A stretch of DNA of 64,000 nt from assembly GCA_040752695.1 (NCBI GenBank), contig JBFMGO010000013.1, positions 1 through 64,000 of the forward strand, in the 5' to 3' direction. Each line of letters begins with the position of its first letter. Position 1 is the first letter of the stretch. The translations under genes were made by a program, and so were the position numbers. The DNA is from a bacterium (GTDB taxonomy: Bacteria; SZUA-182; DTGQ01). This document shows, one piece after another, positions 3,490 through 25,543 of the stretch. The notes under the pieces were generated by a model. That model worked only from the letters and a program-made list of their open reading frames with translations, searched no databases and had not been told where the DNA came from.

Positions 3490-3530
3490 ATTCGACCCTT
3501 TGTGACTGTGAGTCGCCCGTACAGTCGAGT
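3490..3530 (+). promoter_or_regulatory. Putative enhancer (UAS) for a sigma54 activator, copy 1
   Basis: Contains CGCCCGTACAGTCG (3514-3527); its reverse complement aligns without gaps to the motifs at 17216, 23517 and 25500. Confidence 0.6.
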
Positions 3531-3605
3531 TCAATATAAAAGCCTGCGCTGTAGTGAAACTGGATTATTGATTAACTTTCAATACATTGTATGCTTGGCG
3601 GAAGT

Positions 3606-3620
3606 TGGCACAATAATTGG
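3606..3620 (+). promoter_or_regulatory. Putative sigma54 (-24/-12) promoter for the Gly/Trp-rich protein gene
   Basis: TGGCACAATAATTGG: perfect -24 box, GG-N10 spacing, -12 is GG instead of GC. Confidence 0.6.
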
Positions 3621-3936
3621 AAAAAGAATAATCAACAGGCAGTTTCAAGATGGCGTCAATGCTATGAGGACTGCCGTTTTAGGGAGAAATAATTCTCACG
3701 GAGCGAATTGCGGTACGTACAGTATAGAGTGTAATTGTAGATTGTGAAGGGGGGGATGATCAAAAGCCATAAACACAAGCTCGTGAGTGACTCCCAGGTA
3801 TTTTTTCAAAAAACGCATGTTCACCTGGTTAGGAAGAGACTGGAATTTTAAAGGCGCTGCATGACGCTGCATGGTACTGATCAATCAACCGAATTCGAAT
3901 TTTGAACAAATACTTATGAAGAGGATTTATCGAATT

Positions 3937-5298
3937 ATGAAGAGGAAGATATTTTTTGCCGTTTTCATTGTAAGCATAGCCATGCTCTTTGTCTCAGGTT
4001 CATCGATTTGCTCTAATGTGCAGGCCCAGGGCGGATGGGGAGGGCCATTCCAGACAGGCGGTGGCGCGTGGAGTTCCCAGTATTGGGGGTATGGCGGTGG
4101 AAGTCCCTTTATGGGTTATCCCTCCTCCCCTGCGGGGAGGGCCCCTTCGATGGGATACTCCTCCTATCCTTCGATGAGTTACACGGGAAACTTTACGCCG
4201 GTCCCTGTTAACATCGCTCTGCCGGTTTCAACAACTTCGGCTGCAAGCTCAACTACGGTAGAGCCAGCATTTGCCGGGAGTAGTGATGCCTGGCAGGCAT
4301 TTATAACGCAATTACAGGAAAAGTACCCCGATCTTGAAGGTGTAGATTGGGAAAACTCGGAAAACTGGACTGACGATGACTGGAAGCAACTGCGAGAAGC
4401 ATTATCAGAAGAAAGAAGCGCTCAGACACTCCAGAAGTTTATCGATAATTTGACTGAAAAATGGGACAGCTACGGCCTTTCCGACTGGGAAGAATTCAAC
4501 AGCAATTGGAACGCCTTCATTATAGATGTCCAAGCCGATGAAGATGATGATACTGCACTTACCTGGGCCGGTTTTCGAATTACCTACGGCTGCTTTGATA
4601 ATTCCGATCCTGAGAGCGGACCTGATCCTGATGATGTAAATTGCTGGCAGTCCTATGGTACATGGACGAATAAGCAATGGACAGATTTTCGCGGGTTATA
4701 CAATCGCTACGTTGACCATGAATGGCGAGAATTTTGCGAGATACTTCAGGCAAAATGGAATGATTACAATACCATAGACTGGGCAGATTGGCGCGGCTGG
4801 ACTGATGCGGATTGGGAAAAATGCCTTGCACAACTGAGCAGCTCCAGCAACAGAAGCAGTGCCGCACTGGTTAACTCTAATCTGGTGAGTTCTGGCCCTG
4901 GGTACGCATTCGGTCTTGATGCAGGCATAGGATACGCGGGCTGGGGTTTTTCGAGTGTTCCCGGTATGGGATACTCCGGCTGGAGTACCCCCAACAATAT
5001 GGGATATACTGTCAGCCCCGGTATAGGATACGCTTCTTTTAGTGCTCCCAGTGTCAATACAGCTCCCGGTGCCCTCAATGGAGGATTCTCCGGTTGGGGC
5101 GGGCCTGGATACGGATGGGGTGTCTCCAGTGAAGGATACACTGGCAGGAGCGCTAGCAGTGCTCCGAGCGTGGGATACGCTGGCTGGGGTTATTCGAATA
5201 CTGGCGGCATGGGATACTCCGGTTGGGGTGCTCCCGGCGGCTTCAGTGGGGGATACTCCGGTTGGGGTGTTCCCGGTGGAGGATTCTTTGGCTGGTAG
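3937..5298 (+). CDS. Secreted low-complexity protein: GY(S/A)GWG repeats flanking Trp/Asp-rich helical repeats
   Basis: MKRKIFFAVFIV...VQA signal peptide at 3937 (ORF track starts at 3871; alternative ATG 3916); repeated GYSGWG/GYAGWG; central W-x-x-W-T-D-x-D-W repeats. Confidence 0.8.
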   Translation: MKRKIFFAVFIVSIAMLFVSGSSICSNVQAQGGWGGPFQTGGGAWSSQYWGYGGGSPFMGYPSSPAGRAPSMGYSSYPSMSYTGNFTPVPVNIALPVSTTSAASSTTVEPAFAGSSDAWQAFITQLQEKYPDLEGVDWENSENWTDDDWKQLREALSEERSAQTLQKFIDNLTEKWDSYGLSDWEEFNSNWNAFIIDVQADEDDDTALTWAGFRITYGCFDNSDPESGPDPDDVNCWQSYGTWTNKQWTDFRGLYNRYVDHEWREFCEILQAKWNDYNTIDWADWRGWTDADWEKCLAQLSSSSNRSSAALVNSNLVSSGPGYAFGLDAGIGYAGWGFSSVPGMGYSGWSTPNNMGYTVSPGIGYASFSAPSVNTAPGALNGGFSGWGGPGYGWGVSSEGYTGRSASSAPSVGYAGWGYSNTGGMGYSGWGAPGGFSGGYSGWGVPGGGFFGW

Positions 5299-5408
5299 AC
5301 TTTTATAAAGCAGGCGGCAATGGTGTAAGAAAGGCTTTCAGTCCTTCCCAAAACACCGGAACGATGCCAGTGCCACCCGCTTTTTGGCGGAAAAAGCGGG
5401 TTTGCCTC

Positions 5409-5443
5409 AAGGGGGGACAGATTTTAAATCTGTCCCCCCTTTT
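5409..5443 (+). terminator. Perfect hairpin with T tail (terminator or REP-like palindrome)
   Basis: AAGGGGGGACAGATTT-T-AAATCTGTCCCCCCTT followed by T-rich sequence. Confidence 0.65.
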
Positions 5444-5593
5444 AACCTTTTAAAATCAGTCTTCCCTCTCCCCACCCATCTATTGAAAAAGAAACTGTAC
5501 AGGGAAAATTTTCCTGGGCAACAATACAGGCAAGGAGAAGGATGCAAACATGAAAGAGAAAAATTAGGGTACAATCATGAAAGAGAGAAACAG

Positions 5594-6313
5594 GTGATTG
5601 AAAGAGAAGGGCTGCAACTGAGACATGAGTTGAAGTACTACATCGACCCTCCGCAGTATAGAATCCTTCGAAGCAGGATGGCCGCGTTATTGCCGATGGA
5701 CCCGTATGCAGGGCCTGATGGACGCTATCATATCAGGAGCCTGTACTTCGATGATTTCAGGAACTCCGCCCTCTTCGATAAGCAGGCTGGTGTTGCCAGG
5801 CGGAAGAAATACCGGATGCGTATTTATAATTACAGTGATGCAGTAATCAAGCTCGAGCGCAAAACCAAGCTGAACGAGTACATAGGCAAGGAGAGCGTAA
5901 GGCTCACCAGGGAGGAAGCAGACCGCATACTGGCTGGTGATGTCGCCTTCCTGGCCCGCTCTGAAAAACGCCTGCTCAGGATCTTTTATCTGGAGTACCG
6001 CTGCAACCTCCTGCGGCCTAATGTACTGGTAGACTATCACCGTGAGGCGTATGTTTATCCGCTGGGCAATGTCCGGATCACTTTCGATATCAACGTGCAT
6101 ACGGGGCTTGGCTCTATGGCGATCTTCGATCGCGATGCCTTTACCGTCGGAGCCATCGAGGAGCCTGGCACAATTCTTGAGATCAAGTTTGATAATTTCC
6201 TTCCTCAAGTTATCCAAGGCCTGTTTCCAAGCACGATTCGGCCGCGGTTAACGATCGGGAAGTTCGTCATTTGTAAAAAGCACTCCAAATATAACGAGTG
6301 GGAGGATAATTAG
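5594..6313 (+). CDS. VTC-domain (polyphosphate polymerase domain, CYTH/TTM-like) protein
   Basis: RHELKY, Y-x-IRSLYFD, RKKYRMRIY, KLERK-x-K, VDYHREAY, VRITFD, ILEIKF motifs. Probable GTG start at 5594; the ORF track extends to 5384 through a hairpin. Confidence 0.92.
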   Translation: MIEREGLQLRHELKYYIDPPQYRILRSRMAALLPMDPYAGPDGRYHIRSLYFDDFRNSALFDKQAGVARRKKYRMRIYNYSDAVIKLERKTKLNEYIGKESVRLTREEADRILAGDVAFLARSEKRLLRIFYLEYRCNLLRPNVLVDYHREAYVYPLGNVRITFDINVHTGLGSMAIFDRDAFTVGAIEEPGTILEIKFDNFLPQVIQGLFPSTIRPRLTIGKFVICKKHSKYNEWEDN

Positions 6314-6982
6314 GTGCTTACCTTAGAAGAGTTATTCAATGTATTGAATAACATGTCCCAGGCCAACAAGTCTCTCACGGTGTCGAGGGTGATTCTGACA
6401 CTGCTGCTCACCTTTATCGTTGCTCAATTCATGTTTTATGTCTATCGCAAGACCTTCAAAGGGGTTCTCTATACCAGAAACTTCAATGTCGGCCTGGTAA
6501 TGATTGCCCTGGTGACAGCGTTGGTTATCATGCCCATCAGTTCCAACATTTTCCTCTCTCTTGGGATGGTAGGAGCCCTCAGCATTGTGCGTTTTCGCAC
6601 TGCCGTCAAGGATCCCATTGATACGGTGTTCCTGTTTTGGGCTATAGGGGTGGGGCTTTGCTGTGGAGCAGGTTTCTACATAGTGGGTATCGTAGGAAGC
6701 CTCATGATCGGGCTCTTCCTGTTCCTGATGAACCAGGTGGACTTAACCGGCGCTGAACCTTACCTCCTGGTAGTCCACTATGAAAATGGTGCCGAGGGAG
6801 CGCTTCAGGATGTCCTCCCTGCACACAAACTGAAGTCTCAAACCATAACCGCTGCCGGAGTGGAATTGATGATCGAGGTACGTATGAAAGCAAAAGATGC
6901 CACCGGCGTGGATAATCTGCTGAGAATCAAAGGAGTGAAAGATGCCGCTCTCATCAGCTATAATGGTGACTATGTATCTTGA
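6314..6982 (+). CDS. DUF4956 family membrane protein
   Basis: LSLGMVGALSIVRFRTAVKDP-x-D-x-x-FLFWAI-x-x-G signature; starts immediately after the VTC stop codon. Confidence 0.92.
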   Translation: MLTLEELFNVLNNMSQANKSLTVSRVILTLLLTFIVAQFMFYVYRKTFKGVLYTRNFNVGLVMIALVTALVIMPISSNIFLSLGMVGALSIVRFRTAVKDPIDTVFLFWAIGVGLCCGAGFYIVGIVGSLMIGLFLFLMNQVDLTGAEPYLLVVHYENGAEGALQDVLPAHKLKSQTITAAGVELMIEVRMKAKDATGVDNLLRIKGVKDAALISYNGDYVS

Positions 6983-7024: not shown

Positions 7025-7930
7025 GTGAAAATTTTGAATAGAAATAGTATTATTTTAAAAATATTCATTATGACTTTATTTCTCCTGGTTATGGTTACGA
7101 CCAGTAAGCTCGTTTTTAAATATGGTACTATTATTGATAACCTTCAATCTATCCAGATTGAAGATATCAACTTCCCCTATGATTTACACAATCCCTCAAA
7201 TAAATTCAAACTGCCTCATGAGTTGGATGAAATTTCCGGTTTATCCTATTTAAGACAGAACGAACTGGTGTGTATACAGGATGAGAAAGAAGCTGTTTAT
7301 GTATTCGATATTGCTAAAGAAAAAATAATCAATGCCTGTAAGTACGGAAAATCGGGAGATTGTGAAGACGTTGCGGTCGTGAAAAATACTATCTACGTTT
7401 TGGAAAGCAACGGCCATATCTACGAAATAGAAAAATTCGAGAAAAAAAATCACAGAGTGAAAAGGTACAAGGCCCTGGTATTATCGAAGGAAAATAACAC
7501 CGAAGGATTGGCTTTTGATGAGGGATCCTATTCATTGCTGATTACCTGTAAAGGTTCCCAGGAGATTGAAGAGCAGGATGTTAACCTAAGGGGGAAAAAA
7601 GCGATCTACCGGTTTGACTTGAATACAAAAAAGATTTCTCCTAAACCGGCTTACGCAATTAATGTAAAAAATATGGGTGGGGGAACTTTTCAACCGTCAG
7701 GGATTGCAGTCCATCCAATAACGAGACAGATTTACATGATTTCTTCGGTTGACAAAACGCTCCTTGCTTTGAATCAGCAAGGAAAAATTATAGCGGTTGA
7801 AAAGTTAAATAGAAAAATTTTCAAACAGCCGGAAGGAATTTGCTTTAATTCTCATGGAGATTTGTTTATTTCAAATGAAAGCAGAGATGATGGTAAAGCA
7901 AATATACTGGAATTTAAATACAAGCAATAA
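7025..7930 (+). CDS. SdiA-regulated/YjiK-like beta-propeller protein, membrane-anchored
   Basis: EISGL, IQDE, GDCEDVA, NTEGL, FQPSGIAVHP, QPEGICF, LFISNE blade motifs; N-terminal TM segment. Confidence 0.8.
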   Translation: MKILNRNSIILKIFIMTLFLLVMVTTSKLVFKYGTIIDNLQSIQIEDINFPYDLHNPSNKFKLPHELDEISGLSYLRQNELVCIQDEKEAVYVFDIAKEKIINACKYGKSGDCEDVAVVKNTIYVLESNGHIYEIEKFEKKNHRVKRYKALVLSKENNTEGLAFDEGSYSLLITCKGSQEIEEQDVNLRGKKAIYRFDLNTKKISPKPAYAINVKNMGGGTFQPSGIAVHPITRQIYMISSVDKTLLALNQQGKIIAVEKLNRKIFKQPEGICFNSHGDLFISNESRDDGKANILEFKYKQ

Positions 7931-7984: not shown

Positions 7985-8173
7985 CATAGATGAGCATCGC
8001 TCCACGATTCACCTTTCATTGCAAAAACCCATCCCATGCACTCCATCATGCAACTCCTCAATTTTCATAGTTGTCACCGGAAATTATCAATTGTCATCAG
8101 AAGTTATCAGTTTTCATCAGAGCTTATCAAGGGAGACCGCATTATTATAAAAAAGTCAGGAGACATCATCCTT

Positions 8174-9853
8174 ATGAAAAGGTTAATTGCTGTTATTATG
8201 CTTACATTCATCTGCCTGCATACTCCCGCCACATATGGTGGAAAAGCTGAGGCGCTTTTTGAAAATGCTGCTCCTGCCGGGGCCAGCCTGGCGTCTATCC
8301 AATTCACCAAGCTCTTCATCAACGAATTCATGGCCGATAACAAAACCACTGTTAAAGACGCCGACGACAAGTCGGGGAGCTTTGAAGATTGGATCGAGCT
8401 GTACAATGCCGATACCAGTGCCATTGATCTTGGCGGAATATACCTGACCGATAACCTGACCAACCCGACTAAATGGCAAGTCCCTGTGGGGGTTATCATT
8501 CCCTCTGGCGGCTATCTGCTTTTCTGGGCAGATGAAGATGAAAAGCAGGGGAATACGCATACCAACTTCAAACTGAGCAAGGACGGGGAGGCAATTGCCA
8601 TTATAGGGAAAGATGGTGTGACGGTAATAGACTCAATCGCATTCGGAGCCCAGATCATAGACGTTTCTTATGGTCGGTACCCTAACGGCAAAGCCGACTG
8701 GGGATTCATGAAAGCGACGCCGGGTGCTGCAAACAATCTGCATAATGCCCCGCCGGAAATAAGCGGTACGATGCACGCACCCCCGTCGCCTGCCAAAACC
8801 GATCAGGTTTTTGTAACAGCTACGGTTACGGACAAAGACGGTGCTGTTGCGGATGTTACACTTACCTATATGGCAGCGGGCAGCAAAGCGGTGATCGTCA
8901 GGATGTATGATGACGGCACACACTCCGATGCCGGAGCCGGTGACGGCCTTTTCGGCGCCGGCATTCCCGCTTTCGGCCAGGATACGGTTTTAAACTACTC
9001 TATAACCGCAACCGACAATCTCGGGGCTCAATCAACGGCCCCTCCAGCAGCACCGAAAGTGACCTTCACCTATGTCGTTGGTTATACGCCACCTTTGATC
9101 TACATCAACGAGTTCATGGCAGACAGCAATGCCAGTGTCAATTCAAGCATGAATGCTAGTGTCAATTCAAGCATGAATACCAGCCGCTCCAGCATAAATG
9201 TAACCCACAATACCGCCAATGGCACAACGGGAAACGAGGATTGGATCGAGCTATATAATGGTGGTACCAGTTCCGTCGATCTCGGCGGCATGTACCTGAC
9301 CGACAAGCTGGCCGACCGGACCCAGTGGCGGATTCCCGAAGGCGTTACCATTCCTGCCGACGGTCATCTGCTGTTCTGGGCAGATGGCAACAACGAGCAG
9401 GGTAGCATGCATGCCAGCTTCAAACTCAGCAAGGACGGTGAGGCGATTGGACTATTCGATACGGATGTAAAGGGGAATATGCCCGTTGACACGGTAACGT
9501 TCGGGGAACAGGTTGCGAACCTTTCCTGTGGAAGAATTTACGATGGCGCAGAGCCCTGGGTGCTTTCTGAAAATGCCACTCCCGGCACCCCGAATTTTTT
9601 CCCCGCCGGGATGGATAGTTTTATATGGAAATTTTCCTATATCATAGACAGTTATACGATTATACAAAAATTCCCCGGCAGCGTAAATGCCATCAAAGGG
9701 ATGAATACGGATTCAGATCAGTGGGAAGCCGCTTATCCCCTCTGGGGGAATCCAGCAGGCGTTCATTTCCCTGTGATGCCAGATGGTATCTATTACCTAT
9801 CAGTAACCTCGCCAAACTCTGTCTGCTTTAAAGGAAACGTGTTCAGCAAATGA
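8174..9853 (+). CDS. Secreted protein with two lamin-tail domains and a central DDG-x-H-x-D-x-x-AGDG (choice-of-anchor X-like) domain
   Basis: INEFMAD...DWIELYN...LTD...LFWAD...FKLSKDGE...TPG twice; signal peptide from ATG 8174 (track start 8036). Confidence 0.85.
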   Translation: MKRLIAVIMLTFICLHTPATYGGKAEALFENAAPAGASLASIQFTKLFINEFMADNKTTVKDADDKSGSFEDWIELYNADTSAIDLGGIYLTDNLTNPTKWQVPVGVIIPSGGYLLFWADEDEKQGNTHTNFKLSKDGEAIAIIGKDGVTVIDSIAFGAQIIDVSYGRYPNGKADWGFMKATPGAANNLHNAPPEISGTMHAPPSPAKTDQVFVTATVTDKDGAVADVTLTYMAAGSKAVIVRMYDDGTHSDAGAGDGLFGAGIPAFGQDTVLNYSITATDNLGAQSTAPPAAPKVTFTYVVGYTPPLIYINEFMADSNASVNSSMNASVNSSMNTSRSSINVTHNTANGTTGNEDWIELYNGGTSSVDLGGMYLTDKLADRTQWRIPEGVTIPADGHLLFWADGNNEQGSMHASFKLSKDGEAIGLFDTDVKGNMPVDTVTFGEQVANLSCGRIYDGAEPWVLSENATPGTPNFFPAGMDSFIWKFSYIIDSYTIIQKFPGSVNAIKGMNTDSDQWEAAYPLWGNPAGVHFPVMPDGIYYLSVTSPNSVCFKGNVFSK

Positions 9854-13000: not shown

Positions 13001-13196
13001 ACCCCATCCTCGAAATTGTAAAAAGCCCACTTTGAGAGCTTATAATAATATCAATTTTAAGCTATTATAAAACAATCGCTTAAGATAACAGGGAAGATTC
13101 GCAGGTTATTGGATATAGGCGATATCCCTTGGACACGAGTGATATTGAATCGCAGGCGTACGTACACTCAAGCCCCTGTGACCTTATTCATCACAA

Positions 13197-14846
13197 TCAC
13201 TTAATACCCAAAATTGCTTCTCCGATGTTATAAGAGTGATCTCCAATCTTTTCAAAATTAGTTAATATATCTACAAAGATAAATCCTGATACGACATCAC
13301 AGACTCCCTGGTTCAATCTATCGATATGATTACCACTAAATCTATATTTTAGCCTGTTGATTACGGCTTCCCGCCCGAGAGAAGTGGCAGCCAGTTTTTC
13401 ATCTTCCCTTTCTATTGACTCTATGATGTCATTATAAAAGTGGGACGTTTCTTGGTATAGTAATTTGATTTCCTGTAATGCTTCCTGAGTAAAAAATAAA
13501 TTACCGTCTATTTTTTTATTTGCCAATTTAGCTAAATTTTCTGCGTGGTCACCTATGCGTTCAATATCAATAACCATGCGTATTGAAGAGTTGATTTTTT
13601 TTGAGATGTCCGAAGTTATGGGTTCTTGCGACAGTTCTACTAAATAATCAGTAATTTCTTTTTGTAATAAATCAACTATTTCCTCTTTATGATCGATATC
13701 TTGTAGTTTTCCTTTGTCTGTTTGAAAAAGAGCTTCTATTGCCTCATGGATCATCTCTTCAGCAGTTCTAGCCATATGCAATATTTCTTTTTTAACCTGT
13801 TCTAAAGCAATTACCGGTGTTCTTATAAGCCTTTTATCCAGATAATGGGATTGTAATTGAGGGGAGATCGTTTCTTTTTGCGGTATTAAGAAGGTAACGA
13901 CTTTTACGAAATACGAGATGAAAGGTAACAGAATAATGGTATTGATAACATTAAAGAGAGTATGGGCATTTGCTATTTGTCTCGTAACATTCCCGGGCGA
14001 TAGGAATACTATTAATCTTCCATAAGGATTCAATAAGATAAGAGCAATAACGGTCCCCATGATATTAAAAACTGCATGAGCTAAGGCTGTCCTTTTAGCA
14101 GGGACAGAGGCACCGATACTGGCCAGTATCGCAGTTATACAAGTACCGATATTATCCCCTAATAAGATGGGGATGGCTGCATCGATAGTGATTAACTTGC
14201 TGCTTGCCAAAGCCATAAGTAATCCGATTGTGGCGCTGCTGCTTTGAATAATCATCGTAATAATCACGCCGGACAGCACACCCAAAATGGGACCTGAGAC
14301 GGGACTCTTTTTATTGCCAACACTGATAAATATATTGGTTATAACTTCATGACCTCTGAAAAATTTTACAGAATCTACCATGATTTTTAGTCCCAGGAAG
14401 AGAATACCGAAACCGAGAATTATTTCTCCAATGTTTTTATATTTTTTATTTTTTGAAAAAAAGCTTAGTGCAAATCCAATACCAATAGCAGGCAGTGCGA
14501 GATTAGTTAATTTAAAGGCGATAAGCTGGCCGGTGATCGTTGTGCCGATATTGGCTCCCATCACCACTCCTATCGCCTGGTTAAGAGTCATAAGTCCAGC
14601 GTTAACAAAACCCACCAGCATCACAGTAGTAGCACTGCTACTTTGAATAATTGCAGTTATGCAGGTCCCTACCAATACTCCTAATAGGGGTTTATTGGTC
14701 AGCCGGCCAAGGATCTTACGCATTCTGTCCCCTGCCGACTTCTGAAGGCATTCTCCCATGAGATGTATCCCATAGATGAATAATCCGAGTCCACCCATTA
14801 AGCCGAAAATAATTTCCTTAATCATGATATCCTTACTTATGACCAT
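13197..14846 (-). CDS. Na+/Pi cotransporter family protein with C-terminal PhoU-like domains
   Basis: Two IQSSSAT repeats, GANIGTT and GDNIGTC; C-terminal DIERIGDH and FEKIGDH. Confidence 0.95.
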   Translation of the reverse strand: MVISKDIMIKEIIFGLMGGLGLFIYGIHLMGECLQKSAGDRMRKILGRLTNKPLLGVLVGTCITAIIQSSSATTVMLVGFVNAGLMTLNQAIGVVMGANIGTTITGQLIAFKLTNLALPAIGIGFALSFFSKNKKYKNIGEIILGFGILFLGLKIMVDSVKFFRGHEVITNIFISVGNKKSPVSGPILGVLSGVIITMIIQSSSATIGLLMALASSKLITIDAAIPILLGDNIGTCITAILASIGASVPAKRTALAHAVFNIMGTVIALILLNPYGRLIVFLSPGNVTRQIANAHTLFNVINTIILLPFISYFVKVVTFLIPQKETISPQLQSHYLDKRLIRTPVIALEQVKKEILHMARTAEEMIHEAIEALFQTDKGKLQDIDHKEEIVDLLQKEITDYLVELSQEPITSDISKKINSSIRMVIDIERIGDHAENLAKLANKKIDGNLFFTQEALQEIKLLYQETSHFYNDIIESIEREDEKLAATSLGREAVINRLKYRFSGNHIDRLNQGVCDVVSGFIFVDILTNFEKIGDHSYNIGEAILGIK

Positions 14847-17149: not shown

Positions 17150-17215
17150 AGTGTCCCTGCATAATATAAGCTATTGAAAAAATATGCGTATCATAGACTT
17201 GTCATATCCCGATCG

Positions 17216-17259
17216 ATTCGCCCATTCAGTCGGTTTTCAAGACAAGGTGGACGAATGAT
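17216..17259 (-). promoter_or_regulatory. Putative enhancer (UAS), copy 2
   Basis: CGCCCATTCAGTCG at 17219-17232 plus a second half-conserved site 21 bp away; 28/44 identity to 23517-23560 by manual count. Confidence 0.65.
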
Positions 17260-17322: not shown

Positions 17323-17356
17323 AAGAGGGCACAGTCAGCAGTGACTGTGCCCTCTT
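17323..17356 (-). terminator. Intrinsic terminator of the large CotH gene
   Basis: 15-bp perfect stem AAGAGGGCACAGTCA/TGACTGTGCCCTCTT followed on the minus strand by T-rich sequence. Confidence 0.85.
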
Positions 17357-17377: not shown

Positions 17378-20300
17378 TTAATCCAGACAGCTTGGCTGTG
17401 TTAAATATTTTTTAAAGATACAAAGAGCGTCCGATGGAGTAACACTGCCATCCATGTTTACATCAGCATTATCGGAGCAGGTGGCTAATCCAAGGTAGCA
17501 CTGAAACGCAGCAAGAGAATCTGCCGGAGTAATATTTCCATCTCCGTTAAGATCGCCATTGTTGGGCTGTACAGGGGGATTATTTACATCAGGGCCGGTC
17601 TGGCTTACAAAATTCGAGGAGCCGGGAGTAGCATTTTCAAAAAACACCCAGGATTCACCACCATCATACATCCTCCCTTGAGAAATATTCGTGGTCTGCT
17701 GTTCAAATACCACGGTATCAATGGCCACATTCCCCTTTGCCTCCGTATCGAACAGCCCAATTGCTTCACCGCCCTTGCCGAGTTTGAAGTTAGTATGAGT
17801 ATTGCCCTGCTTTTGATCTTCATCGGCCCAGAAAATCAGATAACCTCTGGCCGGGATGCTGACTCCCTCCGGGATCTGCCACTTGGTCGGATTATTCAGA
17901 TCATCGGTCAGATACATCCCAGCCATAAGTACAGGCGAATCAGCCGGATTATAAATTTCGATCCAATCCTCAAAACTCCCTGGTTCATCAGGGTCTTCGA
18001 TCGTGTTGTCATTGTCAGCCATAAACTCGTTAATAAAGAGTAAAGAAGTTGACCCAACCGGTGGCTGGAGTCCCGCGGTATCACCTGCCAGGATTTCAAA
18101 TGCGGCTGATTTGGTAAAGGTTATACCCTGCCCGCCCTGCATCGTGCCCCCGGCGACTGAAGCCTGAGCACCATCTGGGAATTGAAATCCGGCTGGCGGC
18201 TGGGCGCCGCTTGGAGGCTGAAATCCCGCAGGCGGCTGGATACCGCCCGGAGGCTGGAACCCCGTGGGTAGCTGAGTACCACCTGGAGGCTGGAATCCGG
18301 TCGGTGGCTGCATATCAGTTGGAAACTGAAATCCGGCCGGTGGCTGGATACCGCCTGGCATCTGGCCACCAATAGGCTGTTGAAAGCCACCTGTCCCCGA
18401 TATCTGCGGTGCAGGAAATTCGATGGATACATCCTTCATTCCAGGTGGTTCGTTTCCTGGAATGTCAAATATGGACGTTATCTCCAGTCCATTGCGACTT
18501 GTGTCTTTCCCTGTCAGAGTACCAATCTTCACACTCGATGGCAGTGTATCAGAAGGAAACATGGTAATCATCCGTTGATTTAACGTTATGGTAACCACTA
18601 CACCCATATCACCCTGTTTCGCTTGAAGAGGAGAGATAAGTTCAATCGCTGACGGCGCTTCATTTGCTGACGGCGCTTCGCCTCCGGAAACTGTCCCTGA
18701 TCCAGGATTCTCACCAACGGAACCGTTCCCAGGGTAATGAGAAAGGAGATTATCGCCATTCGGAGTCGGCCAGGGCAATATCTGGAATGGGCCTGTTCCG
18801 TTCGGATTTCTCCCATAGGATACATTCGCCTCTTGTTTTCCAAATGCGACCAGATCGATAAGGTCATTCCCCAACTCGTCCGTATTCACCAGCATGACGC
18901 TTTCCCCATCGGTCGAGAGCTTGAAATTGGCGTGGAGACCAGGCGTATCGTTGTCATCTTCATCCGCCCAGATTATGAGATAAGCTCCGGGGTCCAGTGT
19001 TGTCCCTTGCGGTATTTTCCATTTTCGCGGTGTGTCTTCCGTATCGCTCAGATACATTCCCGAAAGATCTATCCGCTGATCGCCGACATTCAAAAGCTCG
19101 ATCCAATCCTCATACTCTCCCTGCGGGTCCTGGATAGTTGCTTCGTTCTTCGCCATCACCTCATTGATGACAACAGGAGTGTATTCGTCGGTGGCTATGA
19201 ATACACGGTATGCGAATACGCGATCTTCGGCCCCGGATGGCGCAAAGGTGCTGCTTTGAGCGGTATCAGTGGCAGGTGCTCCCTGTGCCGCAGGGGCTCC
19301 CTGGACTATGGAGCCCTGGGAAGCACGGGCTTCAACGTAATAACGGACCAGACTGCCAGCAGGGAAAGGAGGAATTATGCCGCCGAAGATCCCATCGCCC
19401 GCTTCGCCATCTCCATGTGCACCATCATCGAACATGGAAACCTGCACGAATGGACCAGCAACCCCTTGAGCGTAGTGAAGGATCACCTCCAGGCTGCCGC
19501 CCGCTCCTTCAACATCGGCTGTTATTTCTACGGATTGCCAGGAGAAAGGCGACTCACCAGCTTCCGGCGTTATGGTACGGACAACTGAATAAATGTGAGG
19601 AACCTGCCTGTTTATCTCCGCGTAGTTGAGCAGGTAATCCCGGCGATTATTGATAAAATCCTCGATATCCGTGAAACTTGCTTCAAATTGATCATTGGAA
19701 TACAATTTCTTGGTATCCGCCCTGACTTCATCGGCAATCAGTGCCTTATACGCTTCAATTTTCGGTGCGAGGGCGTTCCAATTGAACCATTCGTCTAAAA
19801 TGGTCCTCACGTGTGCCAGGTAACGCTGACGAAACTGAGGGACGGCTAAAAGCCTGCTTATTACAGGCCGGCTTGCACTGTTCGTGCCTTCAACCGGACT
19901 CAGGTTGATAAAACGAGCATCGAAGGTCTCATTGCCATCGTGTTCCAAGGGATGGATTCGACCTGTTTCCACTTCGTAATAGATCTGATAATCCCAGCCC
20001 TTAGTAAGATAGCCATCCTCGTCCGTAAAGATGTTTTCCACTGCCAGAAACCATAGCCATCGATCGACAGCCAGGACAGTGTCCACAACGCCCGGCAGTT
20101 GCTCCAGGGGCGTATTATTCAGGATGTTACAGGTCGTTATCAGGTGCCCCCACGGATCATCTGTTTTCGCTGTCTTTAATTCGTAGGCCCGTTCATATGC
20201 AGTTGTGTCAGTTCCTAACCAACTTAAAGCGCCGTCACTACCACCAAACATCATGATATTACCACCGCCAATTCCACCACCAAACCTTCCACCGGCATCA

Positions 20301-21781
20301 ATCATGTTAGCATCAACAAACGCCCCGCCAAAGCCACCCGTACCCCATCCAGCAGTACCCCAGGCACCCCATGCAACAGCTCCGCCCGTGCCGCCGGCAG
20401 CAGGAACCATGTTGGGATCACCAGCCGGCATCGCCCAGGGCGTACCGCCTGGAACCATGCCGCCAGGAACCGTACCACCTGGAACCGTACCGCCAGGGGC
20501 CGTACCACCAGGAATCATGCCGCCAAAAAAGCCAATTGTACCGCCGGCGGCAGGAACCATGTTGGGATCGCCAACTGGCATCGCCCAGGGCATGCCACCA
20601 GGTACCATGCCGCCAGGAATTGTACTACCAAGAACTGTACCACCAGGAATCATGCCACCAAAAAAGCCAATTGTACCGCCGGCGGCAGGAACCATGTTGG
20701 GATCGCCAACTGGCATCGCCCAGGGCATGCCACCAGGTACTCCAGGAACCGTACTACCAGGAACCATACCGCCAGGAACCATACCGCCAACCATACCGCC
20801 TGCACCAGGAACCATGTTGGGATCGCCAATTGGCATCACTCCAGGTTGACCTTGAAGGTTCGTCCAGAAGTCCATAAGAATGGTATAATCATCTTCCGTA
20901 ATCTGGCCATCACCATTCATATCCATCGCCATAGGACTGGCTGCCCATTCCTCAAAAGACATCTGTTGCGGGAATCGATTGGAAGGAAACCTCTGGCTGC
21001 GCATAAGAATGGTATAATCTTCCTCCGTAATCAGGCCGTCACCATTCGCATCCTGCGCCTCAGGACTATCCAGCCAATCTGAAAATGACGGCTGCTGAGC
21101 GGCGGTAAAAACTCCTCCCTGGCCGCCACCCATTCCCCCTCCTACCTTCCAGCGGTCACCATCACTGCTTTGGAACCATTCTTCGATGAGGTCTGAATTG
21201 TTTTGTTGCGCATTGACGTAAATTCCCCAATTCTCGCCGTTAATGATCAGCTTGACAAAATTTGCTTTAGGGCATGGTATATATTTTCTCGCAATATCGA
21301 AATAGAGTACCTCGCGAATAAACGAGGGGTCCAAAGCGGCGTTATTCAGATTCAAGGTCTTATATCCCATCAGTCTTTGATCAGGATCTGTTTCATCGAT
21401 CTCGATGTTAAAAGATTTCTTCTGGGAATTTCCTGCCATCATATATGATGTCATTCCCTTGAATCTGACACCAACACCATGATACGTAACCCCATCCATG
21501 GTAAGATCAGCCAGAACATTCGCGTCTCCACCTGCGTTGTGGTTATTTATCATCTGCTGCCACCAGTCCTGCTGGGCAAAATCAAGGCTTATCGTACGTA
21601 ATACAGTCTCGTCATATAGGCTGGATTTGGCTGGAGCAGCCGTATCGGAAACTATCTCGTCTATTGCTGTTGACTCAGTTATTACCGCCTGTTGTGCTCC
21701 TCCAGCATACCCTGCTGATAAATAAAACACAGCCAGTGCTGCTGCAAAGGTTACATATTTTCGTATCGTGAAACTCTTCAT
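17378..21781 (-). CDS. Large secreted multidomain CotH kinase (CotH with EF-hand-like and Gly/Met/Pro insert, anchor-X-like domain, LTD, Ig-like, LTD, dockerin-like)
   Basis: Signal peptide; GVRFKG-x-TSY, KKSFNI, IREVLY, WGIY-x-N-x-QQ, D-x-DGY, LEHDGNETF; two INE...DWIE LTDs; C-terminal GDLNGDGNITPAD / ADVNMDGSVTPSD. Confidence 0.92.
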   Translation of the reverse strand: MKSFTIRKYVTFAAALAVFYLSAGYAGGAQQAVITESTAIDEIVSDTAAPAKSSLYDETVLRTISLDFAQQDWWQQMINNHNAGGDANVLADLTMDGVTYHGVGVRFKGMTSYMMAGNSQKKSFNIEIDETDPDQRLMGYKTLNLNNAALDPSFIREVLYFDIARKYIPCPKANFVKLIINGENWGIYVNAQQNNSDLIEEWFQSSDGDRWKVGGGMGGGQGGVFTAAQQPSFSDWLDSPEAQDANGDGLITEEDYTILMRSQRFPSNRFPQQMSFEEWAASPMAMDMNGDGQITEDDYTILMDFWTNLQGQPGVMPIGDPNMVPGAGGMVGGMVPGGMVPGSTVPGVPGGMPWAMPVGDPNMVPAAGGTIGFFGGMIPGGTVLGSTIPGGMVPGGMPWAMPVGDPNMVPAAGGTIGFFGGMIPGGTAPGGTVPGGTVPGGMVPGGTPWAMPAGDPNMVPAAGGTGGAVAWGAWGTAGWGTGGFGGAFVDANMIDAGGRFGGGIGGGNIMMFGGSDGALSWLGTDTTAYERAYELKTAKTDDPWGHLITTCNILNNTPLEQLPGVVDTVLAVDRWLWFLAVENIFTDEDGYLTKGWDYQIYYEVETGRIHPLEHDGNETFDARFINLSPVEGTNSASRPVISRLLAVPQFRQRYLAHVRTILDEWFNWNALAPKIEAYKALIADEVRADTKKLYSNDQFEASFTDIEDFINNRRDYLLNYAEINRQVPHIYSVVRTITPEAGESPFSWQSVEITADVEGAGGSLEVILHYAQGVAGPFVQVSMFDDGAHGDGEAGDGIFGGIIPPFPAGSLVRYYVEARASQGSIVQGAPAAQGAPATDTAQSSTFAPSGAEDRVFAYRVFIATDEYTPVVINEVMAKNEATIQDPQGEYEDWIELLNVGDQRIDLSGMYLSDTEDTPRKWKIPQGTTLDPGAYLIIWADEDDNDTPGLHANFKLSTDGESVMLVNTDELGNDLIDLVAFGKQEANVSYGRNPNGTGPFQILPWPTPNGDNLLSHYPGNGSVGENPGSGTVSGGEAPSANEAPSAIELISPLQAKQGDMGVVVTITLNQRMITMFPSDTLPSSVKIGTLTGKDTSRNGLEITSIFDIPGNEPPGMKDVSIEFPAPQISGTGGFQQPIGGQMPGGIQPPAGFQFPTDMQPPTGFQPPGGTQLPTGFQPPGGIQPPAGFQPPSGAQPPAGFQFPDGAQASVAGGTMQGGQGITFTKSAAFEILAGDTAGLQPPVGSTSLLFINEFMADNDNTIEDPDEPGSFEDWIEIYNPADSPVLMAGMYLTDDLNNPTKWQIPEGVSIPARGYLIFWADEDQKQGNTHTNFKLGKGGEAIGLFDTEAKGNVAIDTVVFEQQTTNISQGRMYDGGESWVFFENATPGSSNFVSQTGPDVNNPPVQPNNGDLNGDGNITPADSLAAFQCYLGLATCSDNADVNMDGSVTPSDALCIFKKYLTQPSCLD
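20390..20840 (-). repeat. Coding tandem repeats (about 135-150 bp units, PxGDPNMVPAAGG) with nested 15-bp PGGxV units
   Basis: GCAGGAACCATGTTGGGATC recurs; near-identical blocks 135 bp apart (about 20547 and 20682). Confidence 0.9.
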
Positions 21782-22110: not shown

Positions 22111-23364
22111 TTACGCCGGATTGAAAAAGCCCACCCCCCCAGCGTCTTTCCTAAAAATTAACGTTACGTTACGCGAGGCTGAAGCATTTGGGCAGGGTGG
22201 GTAATTGCTGCCACTTAGAAATATGCCTTTATCATCATCCAGGGCAAATTCCCGGTCAAAGAGTAAAGTTACCTGACGAAAAAGAAGCGATGGAGGAGAT
22301 GTTCCATTAGCCCTACCAGGAGTTGGAGTCAGAGTCTGACTATCTCCCGTGCCATCGGGCAGGCGGCCGAAGCTCGTGCCGCCTGGCGCATCCCCTGCCT
22401 GCCAGTCCAGTACATCCACAATGTTGGAATCCAGATAATAGAGCGTAACACAGTCATCAGAGCCTAGTTTAAATGGTACATAATACGAGCCATCATCAGG
22501 CTCTTTATCCGTAGCCTGGATAACGATAAATTCCCCAGGCTCTAAAAGAACAGTGGGCAGGGGTGCAGGCTCACGCCCTTCACTATCGTCAACCAGCGAG
22601 TAATCTCCCAGAGAAACCGGCTCCTCACCAGTGACATAAAGCTCAATCCAGTCACTGCCGCCGCCAGCGTCATTGGCTGCAATCTCGTTGATGACCAGCG
22701 CAGGTTTTGCAGCCCCTGACGGCGGAGTTTCATTTGAAGGCGGAGTTTCACCTGAAGGCGGGGTTTCCCCGACCGGCGGAGTCTCACCGGATGCGGCAGC
22801 AGCCTTGTTCATTGCATTCGGAGTCGGAGTCAGGGTTTGACTATCTCCCGTGCCATCGGGCAGGCGGCCGAAGCTCGTGCCGCCTGGCGCATCCCCTGCC
22901 TGCCAGTCCAGTATATCCACACGATAAAAATCCAGATAATAAAGAGTGACGCAGTCATCAGGGCCCAGTTTGAATGGTACATAATAGGAACCATCTTCAG
23001 GCTCTTTATCTCCTGCCTGGATAACGATAAATTTACCGGGCTTTAACGTAATGTCAGGCAAAGGTTCGAGCTTACGACCTTCGTTATCGTCAACCAGGGA
23101 ATAATCTCCCAGGAAAACCGGCTCATCACCGATGACATAAAGCTCAATCCAGTCATTGCCTCCATCAGAACTCTCGGCTAGGACTTCGTTGATGACCAAC
23201 CCGCCAGGGCCGCTCTTAACCTGGTCACCACATGCCAATTGAAATAACATGCCTATGAATACTGCAATCAGTCCAATTTGCCTTAGCTTTTTACTCACCG
23301 GGCACTTTAGCCTTTCATGGTTAATTATTTCTGTACTGTTGTTCACTCCGAATCCATAGTGCAC
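22111..23364 (-). CDS. Lipoprotein with two tandem lamin-tail domains
   Basis: Lipobox FQLAC (an alternative GTG at 23298 gives a normal-length signal peptide); LVINE...DWIELY...SFGRLPDG...PTP twice; GETPPS linker. Confidence 0.85.
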   Translation of the reverse strand: MHYGFGVNNSTEIINHERLKCPVSKKLRQIGLIAVFIGMLFQLACGDQVKSGPGGLVINEVLAESSDGGNDWIELYVIGDEPVFLGDYSLVDDNEGRKLEPLPDITLKPGKFIVIQAGDKEPEDGSYYVPFKLGPDDCVTLYYLDFYRVDILDWQAGDAPGGTSFGRLPDGTGDSQTLTPTPNAMNKAAAASGETPPVGETPPSGETPPSNETPPSGAAKPALVINEIAANDAGGGSDWIELYVTGEEPVSLGDYSLVDDSEGREPAPLPTVLLEPGEFIVIQATDKEPDDGSYYVPFKLGSDDCVTLYYLDSNIVDVLDWQAGDAPGGTSFGRLPDGTGDSQTLTPTPGRANGTSPPSLLFRQVTLLFDREFALDDDKGIFLSGSNYPPCPNASASRNVTLIFRKDAGGVGFFNPA

Positions 23365-23425
23365 CTTTTAAACCTTCACCTTCTGTTCTGTGATAGAGTT
23401 TCCCCCACGTCTATGATCCTTTTGC

Positions 23426-23440
23426 TCAATTATCGTGCCA
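23426..23440 (-). promoter_or_regulatory. Putative sigma54 promoter of the LTD lipoprotein (and possibly large CotH) unit
   Basis: Minus strand reads TGGCACGATAATTGA. Confidence 0.7.
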
Positions 23441-23516
23441 AACCGATCTGGTCGGTATAACATATTGGAAATTAATCAATAGCATTAGGGTTACCAGAGA
23501 ATGGGGAGATTGGTAA

Positions 23517-23560
23517 ATTCGACCGAACGGACGGTTTGTAAAACCAAACGGGCGAGTCAT
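23517..23560 (-). promoter_or_regulatory. Putative enhancer (UAS), copy 3
   Basis: CGACCGAACGGACG at 23520-23533 plus a second site 21 bp away. Confidence 0.65.
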
Positions 23561-23664
23561 AATCAACATAAGGATTTTATGAAGGAAATACCAACTCCCT
23601 CTTTTCTATAGGAAGGAGACTGGGGGAGAGGAAGCAGTATCTAAGCCGAAGTAAGACATATGTT

Positions 23665-25068
23665 TCAAGACCGGTCAGATTTATTCTTCAGCCCCAATTT
23701 TTCCAGTCGGGAGCGCAGGTGCCTCTCCGTGATGCCTAACAGTCTGGCTGCTGCACTTTGGTTCCCATTGCTGCGTTTCATTGCTTCTTTAACCATTTCA
23801 CCCTCGAAGGCTCTCATTTTCTCTCCATAACCATCAGATATATTGCAGGGATTTAAGATCTCTTTTCCGGAAACGGTCTGGAGTTGTCCAGGTAAGTCAT
23901 TCTGCGTGATATACTCAGTCCTGCACAGGACCACAGCTCGTTCAATGATATTTTCCAGTTCGCGAACATTTCCCCGGTATTCGTATTTCATAAGGTGATC
24001 CAATGCTTCTCGAGTAATACCTTTAAGCTTTTTATTATTTTCACTGGAAAATTTTTCAATAAATTGGTCGATTAATACGGGAATATCCCTTTTTCGACGC
24101 CGCAGCGGCGGAAGCCATACCGTGACCACATTGAGGCGATAATACAGGTCCTCTCGAAATTCTCCGTTTTTGATCATTTCTTCAAGGTTCCTATTGGTGG
24201 CTGCAACGATGCGCACATCTACCTGAATGGTTTTATTCCCACCCAGTCGCTCGATTTGTCCAAATTGAATGGCCCGCAATAATTTCACCTGAACTGACAG
24301 AGGGATATCACCAACTTCGTCAATAAATAACGTCCCGCCATTGGCCTGTTCGAAACGGCCGATTCTCTGCTGTGTTGCGCCGGTGAAGGCTCCTTTCTCA
24401 TGGCCGAATAATTCACTCTCCAGCAGACTTTCCGATAAGGCAGCTACATTTACCACTACCCAGGGTCTATTCTTTCTGGGACTGGCATAATGAATCGCTC
24501 TTGCGATCAATTCCTTGCCAGTACCGCTTTCCCCGCGCACCAGAACGGTCGTTTTACTTGGTGCAACCCGGCCTGCCATGTTCAGTACCTCTTCCATGTC
24601 ACTACTTTGGGAAAAAATACCATCGAGTTTACATCTATCCTGCAACTGCTGCTTCAGGTTTCGGTTTTCAGCGACGAGCTGCCGCTTTTCCCGTACCCGT
24701 TTGATAAGATGTTCCAGTTCATCCAGATCCACCGGTTTAGCCAGATAATCATAGGCACCAGCTTTCATAATTTCTACAGCATTCTCAACACTTTCATATC
24801 CCTGGTCGTTATAATGGCCGGTCATGATAATCACTTCAATGTCCGGATTGACCTCTTTGACATTTTTTAAAACCGTAAGCCCATCACATTCAGGCATACG
24901 AAGGTCCGATATCACCAGATCGATAGTATTTTTTCGGACGATTTCACAGCCGATTCGACCATTTGCGGCAGTGAAGACTCCATAGCCCTGACGGGTTAAA
25001 AAAGTGTTGAGTAATTTTAGCTGTTCATCTTCATCGTCTATTAATAAAATAGTTAAGGGCATAGTCAT
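23665..25068 (-). CDS. Sigma54-dependent response regulator (NtrC/AtoC/ZraR family: REC-AAA+-HTH)
   Basis: LIDDE...DLRMP receiver; [49 protein letters not shown]; Fis-type [15 protein letters not shown]. Confidence 0.97.
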
Positions 25069-25119
25069 AAGTAAGGATTCCTATGGTAGTTGTTCACGGA
25101 AGTTATTCATGGTAACTGT

Positions 25120-25263
25120 TCATGGTAATTGTCCCGATAAGAAAACTATTCCCGCTGACGAGGGGGGTATTCTTGATTCTGTTTTTCCATAAAGGATTAA
25201 ACTGGTGAGTTTATCGAAAATACCGCCTTGTTTCGGGCAATCGGCTTGGGGTAATTCCACCAT
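25120..25263 (-). CDS. Possible 47-aa small ORF between the sigma54 promoter and the regulator
   Basis: AAGGAGG SD before ATG 25263; translated by hand as MVELPQADCPKQGGIFDKLTSLILYGKTESRIPPSSAGIVFLSGQLP. Confidence 0.35.
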   Translation of the reverse strand: MVELPQADCPKQGGIFDKLTSLILYGKTESRIPPSSAGIVFLSGQLP

Positions 25264-25399
25264 TCCTTATGCCTCCTTTCTTGTTTTTTCGGGCATAAGG
25301 CAGTTAGAATTCACCCCATCTATTAATATCCGTTCCGGTCCAAAATCTGTTCCGGTCTCTATTGATTCTTAATCAAGGGTGGTTCTGTTATATCCATAA

Positions 25400-25414
25400 T
25401 CAAATATTGTGCCA
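25400..25414 (-). promoter_or_regulatory. Putative sigma54 promoter of the regulator gene (autoregulation)
   Basis: Minus strand reads TGGCACAATATTTGA. Confidence 0.7.
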
Positions 25415-25499
25415 GATTACCTCTATGAAACCCAGTCATTCAAGACTTTGAAAACCAATGCACAATACATAAGGAACACAGAAGGGAATCTTTTCATTT

Positions 25500-25543
25500 A
25501 TACGACCAATTGGTCGAACGACTCAAAAAACCGGATGAATAAC
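25500..25543 (-). promoter_or_regulatory. Putative enhancer (UAS), copy 4
   Basis: Perfect palindrome CGACCAATTGGTCG at 25503-25516, with the GGATGAAT end at the same spacing as in the other copies. Confidence 0.65.

Follow-up and report, generated by a model that had tools for sequence, protein, structure and literature searches.

In sigma-54 promoters the GC of the -12 element is recognised by residues H377, S379 and R383 of RpoN, according to the accessible text of PMC9770992, and A in place of the C is known but rare (9 of 186 rhizobial promoters in the available part of PMC3538637). The closest described systems are the NtrC, NifA and VasH circuits, whose promoters are assisted by integration host factor (IHF), the two-component pairs ZraSR and AtoSC, the PhoBR regulon, Desulfovibrio vulgaris DVU3381, listed as envelope stress response in the available part of PMC4641369, and the cotH–polyphosphate polymerase–DUF4956 set that lies beside Gram-positive pel loci, for which the accessible text of PMC7112168 gives no regulator. 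Here we analysed a 64,000-nt stretch of bacterial DNA (hereafter the window; contig JBFMGO010000013.1 of assembly GCA_040752695.1, positions 1 to 64,000), which contains the gene of an NtrC-family activator (23665..25068) among a series of palindrome-bearing sigma-54 promoters. This regulon is real and larger than an earlier note on the same DNA had stated: six units, five of them in the window (P0 to P4) and one on contig C175, are built alike, with a CGHCC-N4-GGDCG palindrome that mostly occurs as a tandem pair and a sigma-54 -24/-12 box. We consider it probable that the palindromes are bound by the product of 23665..25068, which would thereby switch on its own gene together with an envelope module of polyphosphate, phosphate and secreted-kinase functions.

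The earlier note had placed sigma-54 boxes of the form TGGCAC-N5-TTG(A/G) at 3606(+), 17149(-), 23440(-) and 25414(-), and 14-bp palindromes at 3514, 17219, 23520 and 25503; all of them were located. The pattern TGGCAC-N5-TTG[AGT] occurs five times in the window, compared with 0.42 expected, and none of 100 shuffles reached five; the fifth match, at 6166, falls within the VTC gene, has no enhancer upstream and was rejected as a regulon member. CGHCY-N4-RGDCG, a pattern taken from the same four palindromes on which it was counted, matches exactly these four sites, compared with 1.09 expected, and 2 of 100 shuffles reached four. The palindrome-to-box gaps of 78 (P1), 69 (P2), 79 (P3) and 88 nt (P4) equal the distances given earlier (76, 67, 77 and 86 bp) plus two flanking bases. 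The weaker second sites are indeed found 21 bp upstream, at 3493, 17240, 23541 and 25524, but only those of P2 and P3 score above zero on the matrix described below, and that of P4 is very weak. A -24 GG within TGGCAC, at the exact GG-N10-GC spacing, is present at P1 to P4 and at C175; at P0, the GG has a degenerate flank.

Outside the locus the motif is rare, and not at the background frequency that the earlier note had named as the outcome that would tell against it. We scored 580 relaxed intergenic sigma-54 candidates of the host genome (G000; 6.05 Mb, 96.6% complete; other genomes are designated G001–G012 and so on, contigs C and loci L), leaving the -12 base free, with a matrix trained on nine sites upstream of homologous loci from G002, G007, G008 and two Melioribacteraceae contigs, and none from G000. 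P4, P3, P2 and P1 took ranks 1 to 4, C175:5913 took rank 5, and only six of the 580 candidates reached 12 bits or more. C175:5913 is an additional regulon member, with tandem sites and a TTGA box upstream of a sulfatase-TPR gene, and the sixth candidate is a sister motif before a kinase-activator pair on C68. P0, missed by the earlier note, is a fifth window unit, in which a palindrome at 370, in tandem with one at 350, lies 88 nt before TGGTCC-N5-TTGC at 472; it is predicted to serve u977 and a porin gene. Matrix matches at C69:299, C93, C128 and C29 were not accepted as members, having no matching box or being located inside genes, and C68:14662 (15.7 bits) was assigned elsewhere, as its sister motif and canonical box stand ahead of their own kinase-activator pair. 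This sister motif, CGAC-AAAATT-GTCG with a canonical -12, occupies C68:14564-14677 (L134), before a pair whose activator has the helix-turn-helix (HTH) ISERVLRYKM; a near-identical site adjoins an ERNLRYKM activator in Calditrichia (L132).

The features of the locus, with gene families assigned by Pfam and NCBIfam, are as follows.

350..363 (distal) and 370..383 (proximal), + strand: P0 tandem enhancer, sites 20 bp apart; the proximal site is the second-best intergenic site of the genome (19.3 bits)
432..444, + strand: P0 IHF-like site, ending 27 nt before the box; differs from WATCAA-N4-TTR at two positions
472..486, + strand: P0, predicted sigma-54 promoter TGGTCC-N5-TTGC with degenerate -24 flank and canonical -12; predicted start ~498
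977..1627, + strand: u977, conserved 216-aa membrane protein of no Pfam family; predicted P0 target
1827..3200, + strand: phosphate-selective porin O/P family (PF07396, E=3e-59); predicted P0 target
3493..3506 (weak distal) and 3514..3527 (proximal), + strand: P1 tandem enhancer
3577..3589, + strand: P1 IHF-like site, ending 16 nt before the box
3606..3620, + strand: P1 sigma-54 box TGGCAC-N5-TTGG; predicted start ~3632
3871..5298, + strand: secreted Gly/Trp-rich 475-aa protein of no known family; its G010 homologue likewise has an upstream enhancer
5384..6313, + strand: VTC-domain (polyphosphate-polymerase-like) protein (PF09359, E=8e-35); probable start 5594 from orthologue comparison
6314..6982, + strand: DUF4956 membrane protein (Pfam)
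7025..7930, + strand: SdiA-regulated-family beta-propeller protein (Pfam)
8036..9853, + strand: secreted protein with two lamin-tail domains (LTD; Pfam)
10091..13030, - strand: UPF0182 membrane protein, probable later gene of the P2 unit; G002 and G007 have a separate enhancer-promoter for it
13197..14846, - strand: Na/Pi cotransporter with PhoU domains, probable P2-unit member; own enhancer-promoter in G007, G010 and G012
15064..17022, - strand: CotH kinase-family lipoprotein (PF08757, E=2e-65), first gene after P2
17135..17149, - strand: P2 sigma-54 box TGGCAC-N5-TTGA; predicted start ~17123
17167..17179, - strand: P2 IHF-like site, ending 17 nt before the box
17219..17232 (proximal) and 17240..17253 (distal), - strand: P2 tandem enhancer
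17323..17356, - strand: terminator-like hairpin of 15 pairs at the end of the P3 unit, just ahead of the P2 enhancer
17378..21781, - strand: secreted 1467-aa protein with CotH, LTD, EF-hand and dockerin domains; probable P3 unit
22111..23364, - strand: lipoprotein with two lamin-tail domains, first gene after P3
23426..23440, - strand: P3 sigma-54 box TGGCAC-N5-TTGA; predicted start ~23414
23458..23470, - strand: P3 IHF-like site, ending 17 nt before the box; differs from the consensus at two positions
23520..23533 (proximal) and 23541..23554 (distal), - strand: P3 tandem enhancer
23665..25068, - strand: REC-AAA+-Fis-HTH sigma-54 activator with GAFTGA at residue 226, intact Walker A/B and HTH ERHLRSR; predicted palindrome reader
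25144..25263, - strand: putative 39-codon open reading frame (ORF) with a strong ribosome-binding site (RBS), between P4 and the activator
25400..25414, - strand: P4 sigma-54 box TGGCAC-N5-TTGA, predicted autoactivation, start ~25388; orthologous promoter in G002, L049 and L050
25441..25453, - strand: P4 IHF-like site, ending 26 nt before the box
25503..25516 (perfect palindrome) and 25524..25537 (very weak second site), - strand: P4 enhancer, best intergenic site of the genome
25939..32096, + strand: TonB-dependent receptor, YfiR-like protein, CHASE8 histidine kinase and REC-histidine kinase; candidate signal input

A half-match resembling the palindrome (23441-23456, -) adjoins the P3 -24 box and could be repressive or spurious. 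The leaders after P4 and P0 contain short ORFs with RBS-like sequences (25144-25263, -, 39 codons, and 517-672, +, 51 codons), and imperfect short tandem repeats occupy intergenic DNA past the porin gene (3300-3390) and past u977 (1655-1735). Searches with the window proteins returned no PDB sequence match for the VTC protein at E<=0.01 and no usable feature match in the ESM Atlas for the Gly/Trp-rich protein or u977; by predicted structure, u977 partly matches MoxZ (TM 0.56). The far part of the window encodes a CusR-like OmpR regulator (49372-50082) and, following a hybrid kinase, a solitary PstS (57554-58654), both without the enhancer.

The activator contains domains PF00072, PF00158, PF25601 and PF02954, that is, REC, AAA+ and a Fis-type HTH, which places it in the NtrC family, and its functional motifs are all present: GAFTGA (226), the Walker sequences GESGTGKE (179) and FIDEVG (248), and the phospho-acceptor Asp in DLRMP (55). 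Its receiver carries a 5-residue insertion (residues ~83–93, near beta4-alpha4), a pattern absent in the other 119 of 120 homologues, and this could alter activation. The host repertoire of bacterial enhancer-binding proteins (bEBPs) comprises 41 PF00158 matches, 36 of them with E <1e-59. The helix ERH[LIF]RSR occurs in 114 of the best 120 homologues of the activator. Close homologues were found in 49 of the 86 Calditrichota and 8 of the 151 Ignavibacteria genomes searched, and none of the 201 Bacteroidales genomes searched had an orthologue at E<=1e-160. We analysed 61 activator loci (50 of the 51 Calditrichota matches plus G043, 7 of the 8 Ignavibacteria matches, and three metagenome loci), 54 of which have this helix. 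Because 39 of these 54 loci have a motif-bearing promoter nearby, the adjacent activator is the best candidate reader of the palindromes. Among the 62 promoters from these loci, 37 have a second site 20–22 bp away, and most gaps measure 74–80 nt. These promoters serve genes for small, acidic, secreted proteins with Gly/Asp repeats, for DUF2202 and DUF4405 proteins and for outer-membrane proteins; such donor-type targets look like Ca/metal binders.

An adjacent PAS kinase is full-length beside one G008 activator copy and truncated beside one G007 copy, and no PAS-kinase orthologue was found in G000, where the best matches cover only the kinase core (<=40%). The cluster of TonB receptor, YfiR-like protein and kinases neighbours the activator in G000, G002, G007, G008 and L050, and is a target in six relatives, an enhancer-promoter facing it in G006, G007, G008, G009, G010 and G012; in G000, no enhancer-promoter faces the cluster at 25939..32096. 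We infer that this TonB–YfiR–CHASE8 kinase–REC kinase relay is the signal input.

To examine the origin of the activator, we placed it in phylogenies. The activators of the host phylum, found in 4 of its 20 genomes, form one clade (Shimodaira–Hasegawa-like approximate likelihood ratio test, 99) nested inside Calditrichota/Ignavibacteria sequences, and the approximately unbiased test rejects a clade restricted to Fibrobacteres–Chlorobi–Bacteroidetes (FCB) sequences (p=0.011; 27 rows, rooted on four sister-subfamily proteins). Many further unplaced activators fall in the host clade, mostly on short contigs. This topology fits a single acquisition from an FCB-type donor.

The earlier note had viewed the two oppositely oriented arms of the locus as one system, and relatives bear this out: the same genes are reshuffled, often onto other contigs, in G002, G003, G006, G007, G008, G009, G010, G011 and G012, while the transcription units keep palindrome and promoter. 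Own enhancer-promoters recur in relatives before VTC, Na/Pi, UPF0182, LTD/CotH, u977-porin, sulfatase and TonB-cluster genes, and the orthologous u977-porin units of G002, G009 and G010 have typical ones. The strict composite pattern is present in 10 of the 20 phylum genomes and VTC in 9, with both in 8, a co-occurrence that we give without a p-value since kin genomes are not independent; G001, G004 and G005 (91–96% complete) yielded no match to the composite pattern, and neither VTC nor an activator orthologue was found in them. The G010:C66 and G002:C54:71336 matches were dropped before the count of 33 phylum promoters used below, having no suitable downstream gene, and G007:24837 and G008b:15758 were left out, as no palindrome was found. 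Three local variants were also recorded. The activator occupies the interval from the divergent promoter to u977 in G007 C36 (L014), and this interval is empty in G010 C88 (L264) and G009 C108 (L323), which suggests a clean local deletion; in G007 C21 (L261, 9805-11069) the Na/Pi and VTC genes are apparently short or split, with the enhancer-promoter intact; and upstream of the Gly/Trp-protein homologue, at G010 C11:211 (L262), the promoter has a spacer to TTGC that is one base shorter than usual.

Each of the five promoters in the window contains an IHF-like site, with one or two mismatches to the E. coli consensus WATCAA-N4-TTR (available part of PMC5963220), ending 27, 16, 17, 17 and 26 nt before the box (P0 to P4). 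In relaxed form, this pattern is found in 5 of the 6 G000 members and 18 of the 33 phylum promoters, compared with 2 of 61 canonical G000 promoters. The host has five HU/IHF-family genes, including an IHF-alpha-like one (108 bits; NCBIfam cut-off 111) and an IHF-beta-like one (112; cut-off 115). An IHF-beta-like gene is located directly upstream of rpoN in an lptB-rpoN-hpf-ptsN cluster (G000 C26:42337-44240, L001). Helical phasing, which the earlier note had proposed, was retained in part: the four gaps give a Monte-Carlo p=0.03 at a fixed 10.5-bp period, but the steps are of 9–10 bp and the phasing is not family-wide. The G000 sub-intervals shift by whole turns, with IHF-to-box distances of 16/17 or 26/27 and enhancer-to-IHF distances of 48/49 or 39 (59 in L050), and 24 of the 33 host-phylum palindrome-box gaps lie at about 74–79 nt. 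Phasing is plausible for the IHF-containing promoter class, and not a rule of the family.

The regulon departs from the host genome at the -12 base. Intergenic TGGCAYR-N4-WTGx sequences of G000 end in C 62, A 8, G 9 and T 7 times (n=86). The -12 doublet is GG at P1, GA at P2, P3, P4 and C175, and GC only at P0, so that none of the five TGGCA-type regulon promoters has the C found in 62 of the 86 genome sites (Fisher p=0.001). Across the host phylum, the 33 promoters contain GA 23, GG 5, GT 3 and GC 1 times, plus one short spacer, and a further 25 rows GA 19, GG 3 and GC 3 times, the base being A, G or T in 53 of 58. The 62-promoter Calditrichota/Ignavibacteria family set has GA 32, GT 25, GC 2 and other 3 times. 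Genome-wide C/A/T counts were 52/161/153 in 18 Calditrichota (reversed-pattern controls 33/21/52), A exceeding C in 17 and T exceeding C in 18 of them; the 15 host-phylum genomes gave 210/84/57 (controls 7/11/11). Of 25 TTG[A/T] matches in two Calditrichota, 23 are intergenic and just one has this enhancer, which indicates that TTG[A/T] is a general dialect there; such matches precede genes resembling Hsp20, GroES, Lon and TROVE by sequence. The counts do not bear out this dialect for all FCB bacteria: Ignavibacteria (10 genomes; 11/17/25) remain at the level of reversed controls (10/11/24). Five Bacteroidales genomes gave 19/25/32 (controls 6/6/21), with C and A both above control. The 24 TTGA matches of G001 were discarded as a counter-example, since 17 are copies of one intergenic repeat. 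This repeat, of at least ~65 nt (17 copies, L161-L186), contains a TTGA-type sigma-54-like box and has a look-alike at G000 C14:39885.

Changes at -12 alter basal control. Natural A variants exist, so that a missing C makes a site less of a canonical promoter and not less able to work as one. A second RpoN paralogue behind the variant was ruled out, as G000 has a single rpoN, on C26, with canonical HESTISR and RpoN box. HEST[IV]SR is found in 6 of 6 host-phylum genomes (G000 and five relatives), as in solved proteobacterial sigma-54, compared with DIST[IV]SR in 16 of 16 FCB genomes (8 Calditrichota, 5 Ignavibacteria and 3 Bacteroidales; L135-L155). Because DIST[IV]SR replaces HEST[IV]SR, FCB RpoN keeps two of the three GC-reading residues and has His changed to Asp. 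Residue 377 appears to track the -12 dialect as a correlation across two clades, unseen in the Ignavibacteria counts and amounting only to relaxation in Bacteroidales. We tentatively extend this to a reading in which one RpoN helix residue sets lineage dialects (His377, TTGC; Asp, TTG[A/T]), and the activator, gained by horizontal transfer, brought the foreign dialect into a canonical host, where it was kept and spread to further targets for insulation in a relay-sensed circuit dedicated to VTC-DUF4956-CotH-LTD; a weak -12 together with IHF would make these promoters respond only to their own enhancer-bound activator among ~36.

It is a serious possibility that regulon and reader are as we propose and the missing C is a neutral relic, without any role in insulation or tuning, of promoters that were copied and are read by an RpoN tolerant of TTG[A/G/T]. 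TTG[A/T] boxes precede unrelated genes in G007, such as that of a small heat-shock protein, and in the host phylum A and T were counted more often than in the reversed-pattern controls (A, 84 vs 11; T, 57 vs 11), though 17 of the 24 G001 A matches are the one repeat; rhizobial nifH promoters, moreover, function with A at -12, according to the available part of PMC3538637. The spacer and flanks, on the other hand, are not alignable by eye, yet those 53 of 58 promoters, from three phylum families, dispense with C, and the base varies among A, G and T and rarely returns to C, although C is the host optimum.

The proposal that the local activator reads the palindromes is drawn from sequence and comparison among genomes, and several points weigh against it. 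There is some circularity in the matrix, as a consensus taken from the window served to select its training sites. P0 departs from the regulon type in combining a degenerate -24 with a canonical -12, and TTGC or ATGC ends three rows among the 25 of the second phylum set. Among 30 examined in G007, 16 TTG[A/T] boxes are intergenic and lack this enhancer, so that the host RpoN may simply tolerate such boxes. The pst operons of G000 (C2 and C4) were not among the enhancer promoters in the genome matrix scan, and the regulon is therefore not a general Pho regulon. The trees were quick searches without bootstrap, with KSB1 donors poorly sampled, and the relay is linked to the activator through neighbourhood and synteny. 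Phasing is weak in the remaining nine phylum gaps, which are non-independent (Rayleigh p=0.18, V-test p=0.038), and the FCB set contains a 12-promoter class at 62–65 nt, with the IHF-like pattern in none and a V-test p=0.37; strict family-wide phasing receives no support from the Calditrichota/Ignavibacteria set and was abandoned, and helical phasing is only suggestive. Lastly, six relatives (G003, G006, G009, G010, G011 and G012; 63–97% complete) keep enhancer-promoters, and whole-protein and HTH searches found no activator orthologue in them; this may be assembly loss, many loci ending at contig edges.

These six relatives also favour a different reader, chiefly the C68 sister activator, acting wholly or in part on the palindrome, with the local activator as a target or co-reader. 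C68-type activators occur in G009, G010 and G012, and the site upstream of the C68 gene reaches its 15.7 bits on the same matrix. We regard this alternative as unlikely, since the sites of the relatives keep the inner C/G where the C68-type site has A/T, G001, G004 and G005 have a C68-type activator but not a single composite site, the motif accompanies ERHLRSR-type activators across three phyla in the 39 of 54 loci counted above, and many further host-clade activators, mostly on short contigs, await placement. It is very improbable that the boxes are not sigma-54 elements and that sigma-70 promoters drive the genes while another factor binds the palindrome: a 10/12 sigma-70-like match does overlap P1 (3605-3632) and the -12 boxes are non-canonical, but the region has 40 such matches compared with 33 ± 6 in shuffles, the listing has no entry for P0 or P2 on the strand concerned, and TGGCAY plus TTG is conserved at the exact sigma-54 spacing in more than 100 promoters. 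That the blocks are mobile or repeat copies or chance look-alikes is scarcely credible, even with a true TTGA-bearing intergenic repeat in G001 (17 copies), as they have only functional elements in common, at fixed distances, always facing genes and tied to orthologous targets across genomes, and chance is excluded by the shuffles and the genome-wide rank.

The most likely role of the regulon, judged from the predicted targets, would be an envelope response to phosphate and divalent metals, as suggested by the porin O/P, the Na/Pi cotransporter, the polyphosphate-polymerase-like enzyme with its membrane partner, and the secreted CotH/LTD/EF-hand/dockerin proteins; the unit of G002 includes pstSCAB and that of G007 an alkaline phosphatase. 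In the mechanism that we propose, a kinase would phosphorylate the receiver, most likely through the adjacent TonB receptor–YfiR–CHASE8 kinase–REC kinase relay, since G000 lacks the PAS kinase that ancestrally adjoined the activator. An AAA+ hexamer would then be seeded by two dimers on sites two turns apart, an IHF-type bend (a predicted DNA loop) would bring it to the sigma-54 holoenzyme, and P4 would provide positive feedback. The output would be phosphate capture, polyphosphate synthesis, and Ca/metal binding and phosphorylation at the surface of the envelope. Historically, the activator would have come from a Calditrichota-like donor with RpoN His377 changed to Asp and TTG[A/T] genome-wide, the host lineage retaining the promoter dialect of the donor and recruiting new targets.

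The locus offers a candidate regulator, motif and sensor for the widespread but uncharacterised bacterial VTC-DUF4956-CotH-LTD set, which makes its inducing signal testable and adds a phosphate porin, a Na/Pi transporter, UPF0182 and a sulfatase to its members. It also points to a phylum-wide Calditrichota dialect that tracks a change in a known GC-reading residue, and scans restricted to TTGC would miss most such regulons; one promoter class under two RpoN types amounts to a natural experiment on the conservation of the -12 C. In the literature searched we found no description of the CGHCC-N4-GGDCG palindrome and no regulator or promoter for the cotH-polymerase-DUF4956 set. Nor did the full texts searched, outside which most subscription papers fall, describe the motif, the regulon or the dialect, although the supplements of PMC12316311 and PMC4641369 may hold something similar. 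The available part of supplement 3 of PMC12316311 gives motifs of proteins and no promoter matrices by class; such matrices, should they be available in another deposit, could show the dialect already.

In its targets the locus resembles the PhoBR regulon, with a phosphate porin, a Na/Pi transporter and a polyphosphate enzyme, as well as alkaline phosphatase (G007) and pstSCAB (G002) in relatives, but it is not a PhoB regulon, as the regulator is a bEBP with a palindrome and not an OmpR-type protein with pho boxes, and the G000 pst operons stand apart. It shares its core target genes with the pel-associated cotH set, and differs from it in the diderm host, the absence of pel genes from the window, and the additional porin O/P, Na/Pi, UPF0182, sulfatase and TonB-YfiR-kinase cluster. 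Like ZraSR/ZraP and AtoSC, it combines a two-component sigma-54 activator, here with predicted autoregulation, with envelope or secreted targets, and AtoC and ZraR are the best NCBIfam matches. It is not an equivalog of either, however, scoring 439 against a cut-off of 760 for ZraR and 491 against 714 for AtoC, with neither ZraP/ZraS nor an ato context; unlike ZraSR, G000 has no ZraP and no adjacent ZraS-type kinase, and the ZraR binding site differs from this motif. As in the rhizobial nifH and B. japonicum fdxN promoters, with A at -12, and in R. sphaeroides RpoN1/RpoN2, with specificity at -11, promoters without the -12 C are predicted to function; those cases concern single promoters or RpoN paralogues, whereas here the variant runs through a whole regulon although the host has a single, canonical RpoN, and Calditrichota appear to use it as an entire phylum, with an altered RpoN helix. 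The closest match is with the NtrC, NifA and VasH promoters, in the REC-AAA+-Fis-HTH activator with GAFTGA, the tandem palindromes two turns apart and the IHF-like site ~16 nt upstream of the -24, a 16-bp interval likewise reported for Vibrio hcp promoters in the available part of PMC5963220. Unlike in these systems, the -12 C is absent regulon-wide rather than at single promoters, and the targets are unrelated to nitrogen or secretion. By architecture, then, this is a classical IHF-assisted NtrC-type system, distinct from ZraR, AtoC and Pho, and what sets it apart is a regulon-wide non-canonical -12 box, probably inherited from another phylum, that would control an uncharacterised polyphosphate envelope module.

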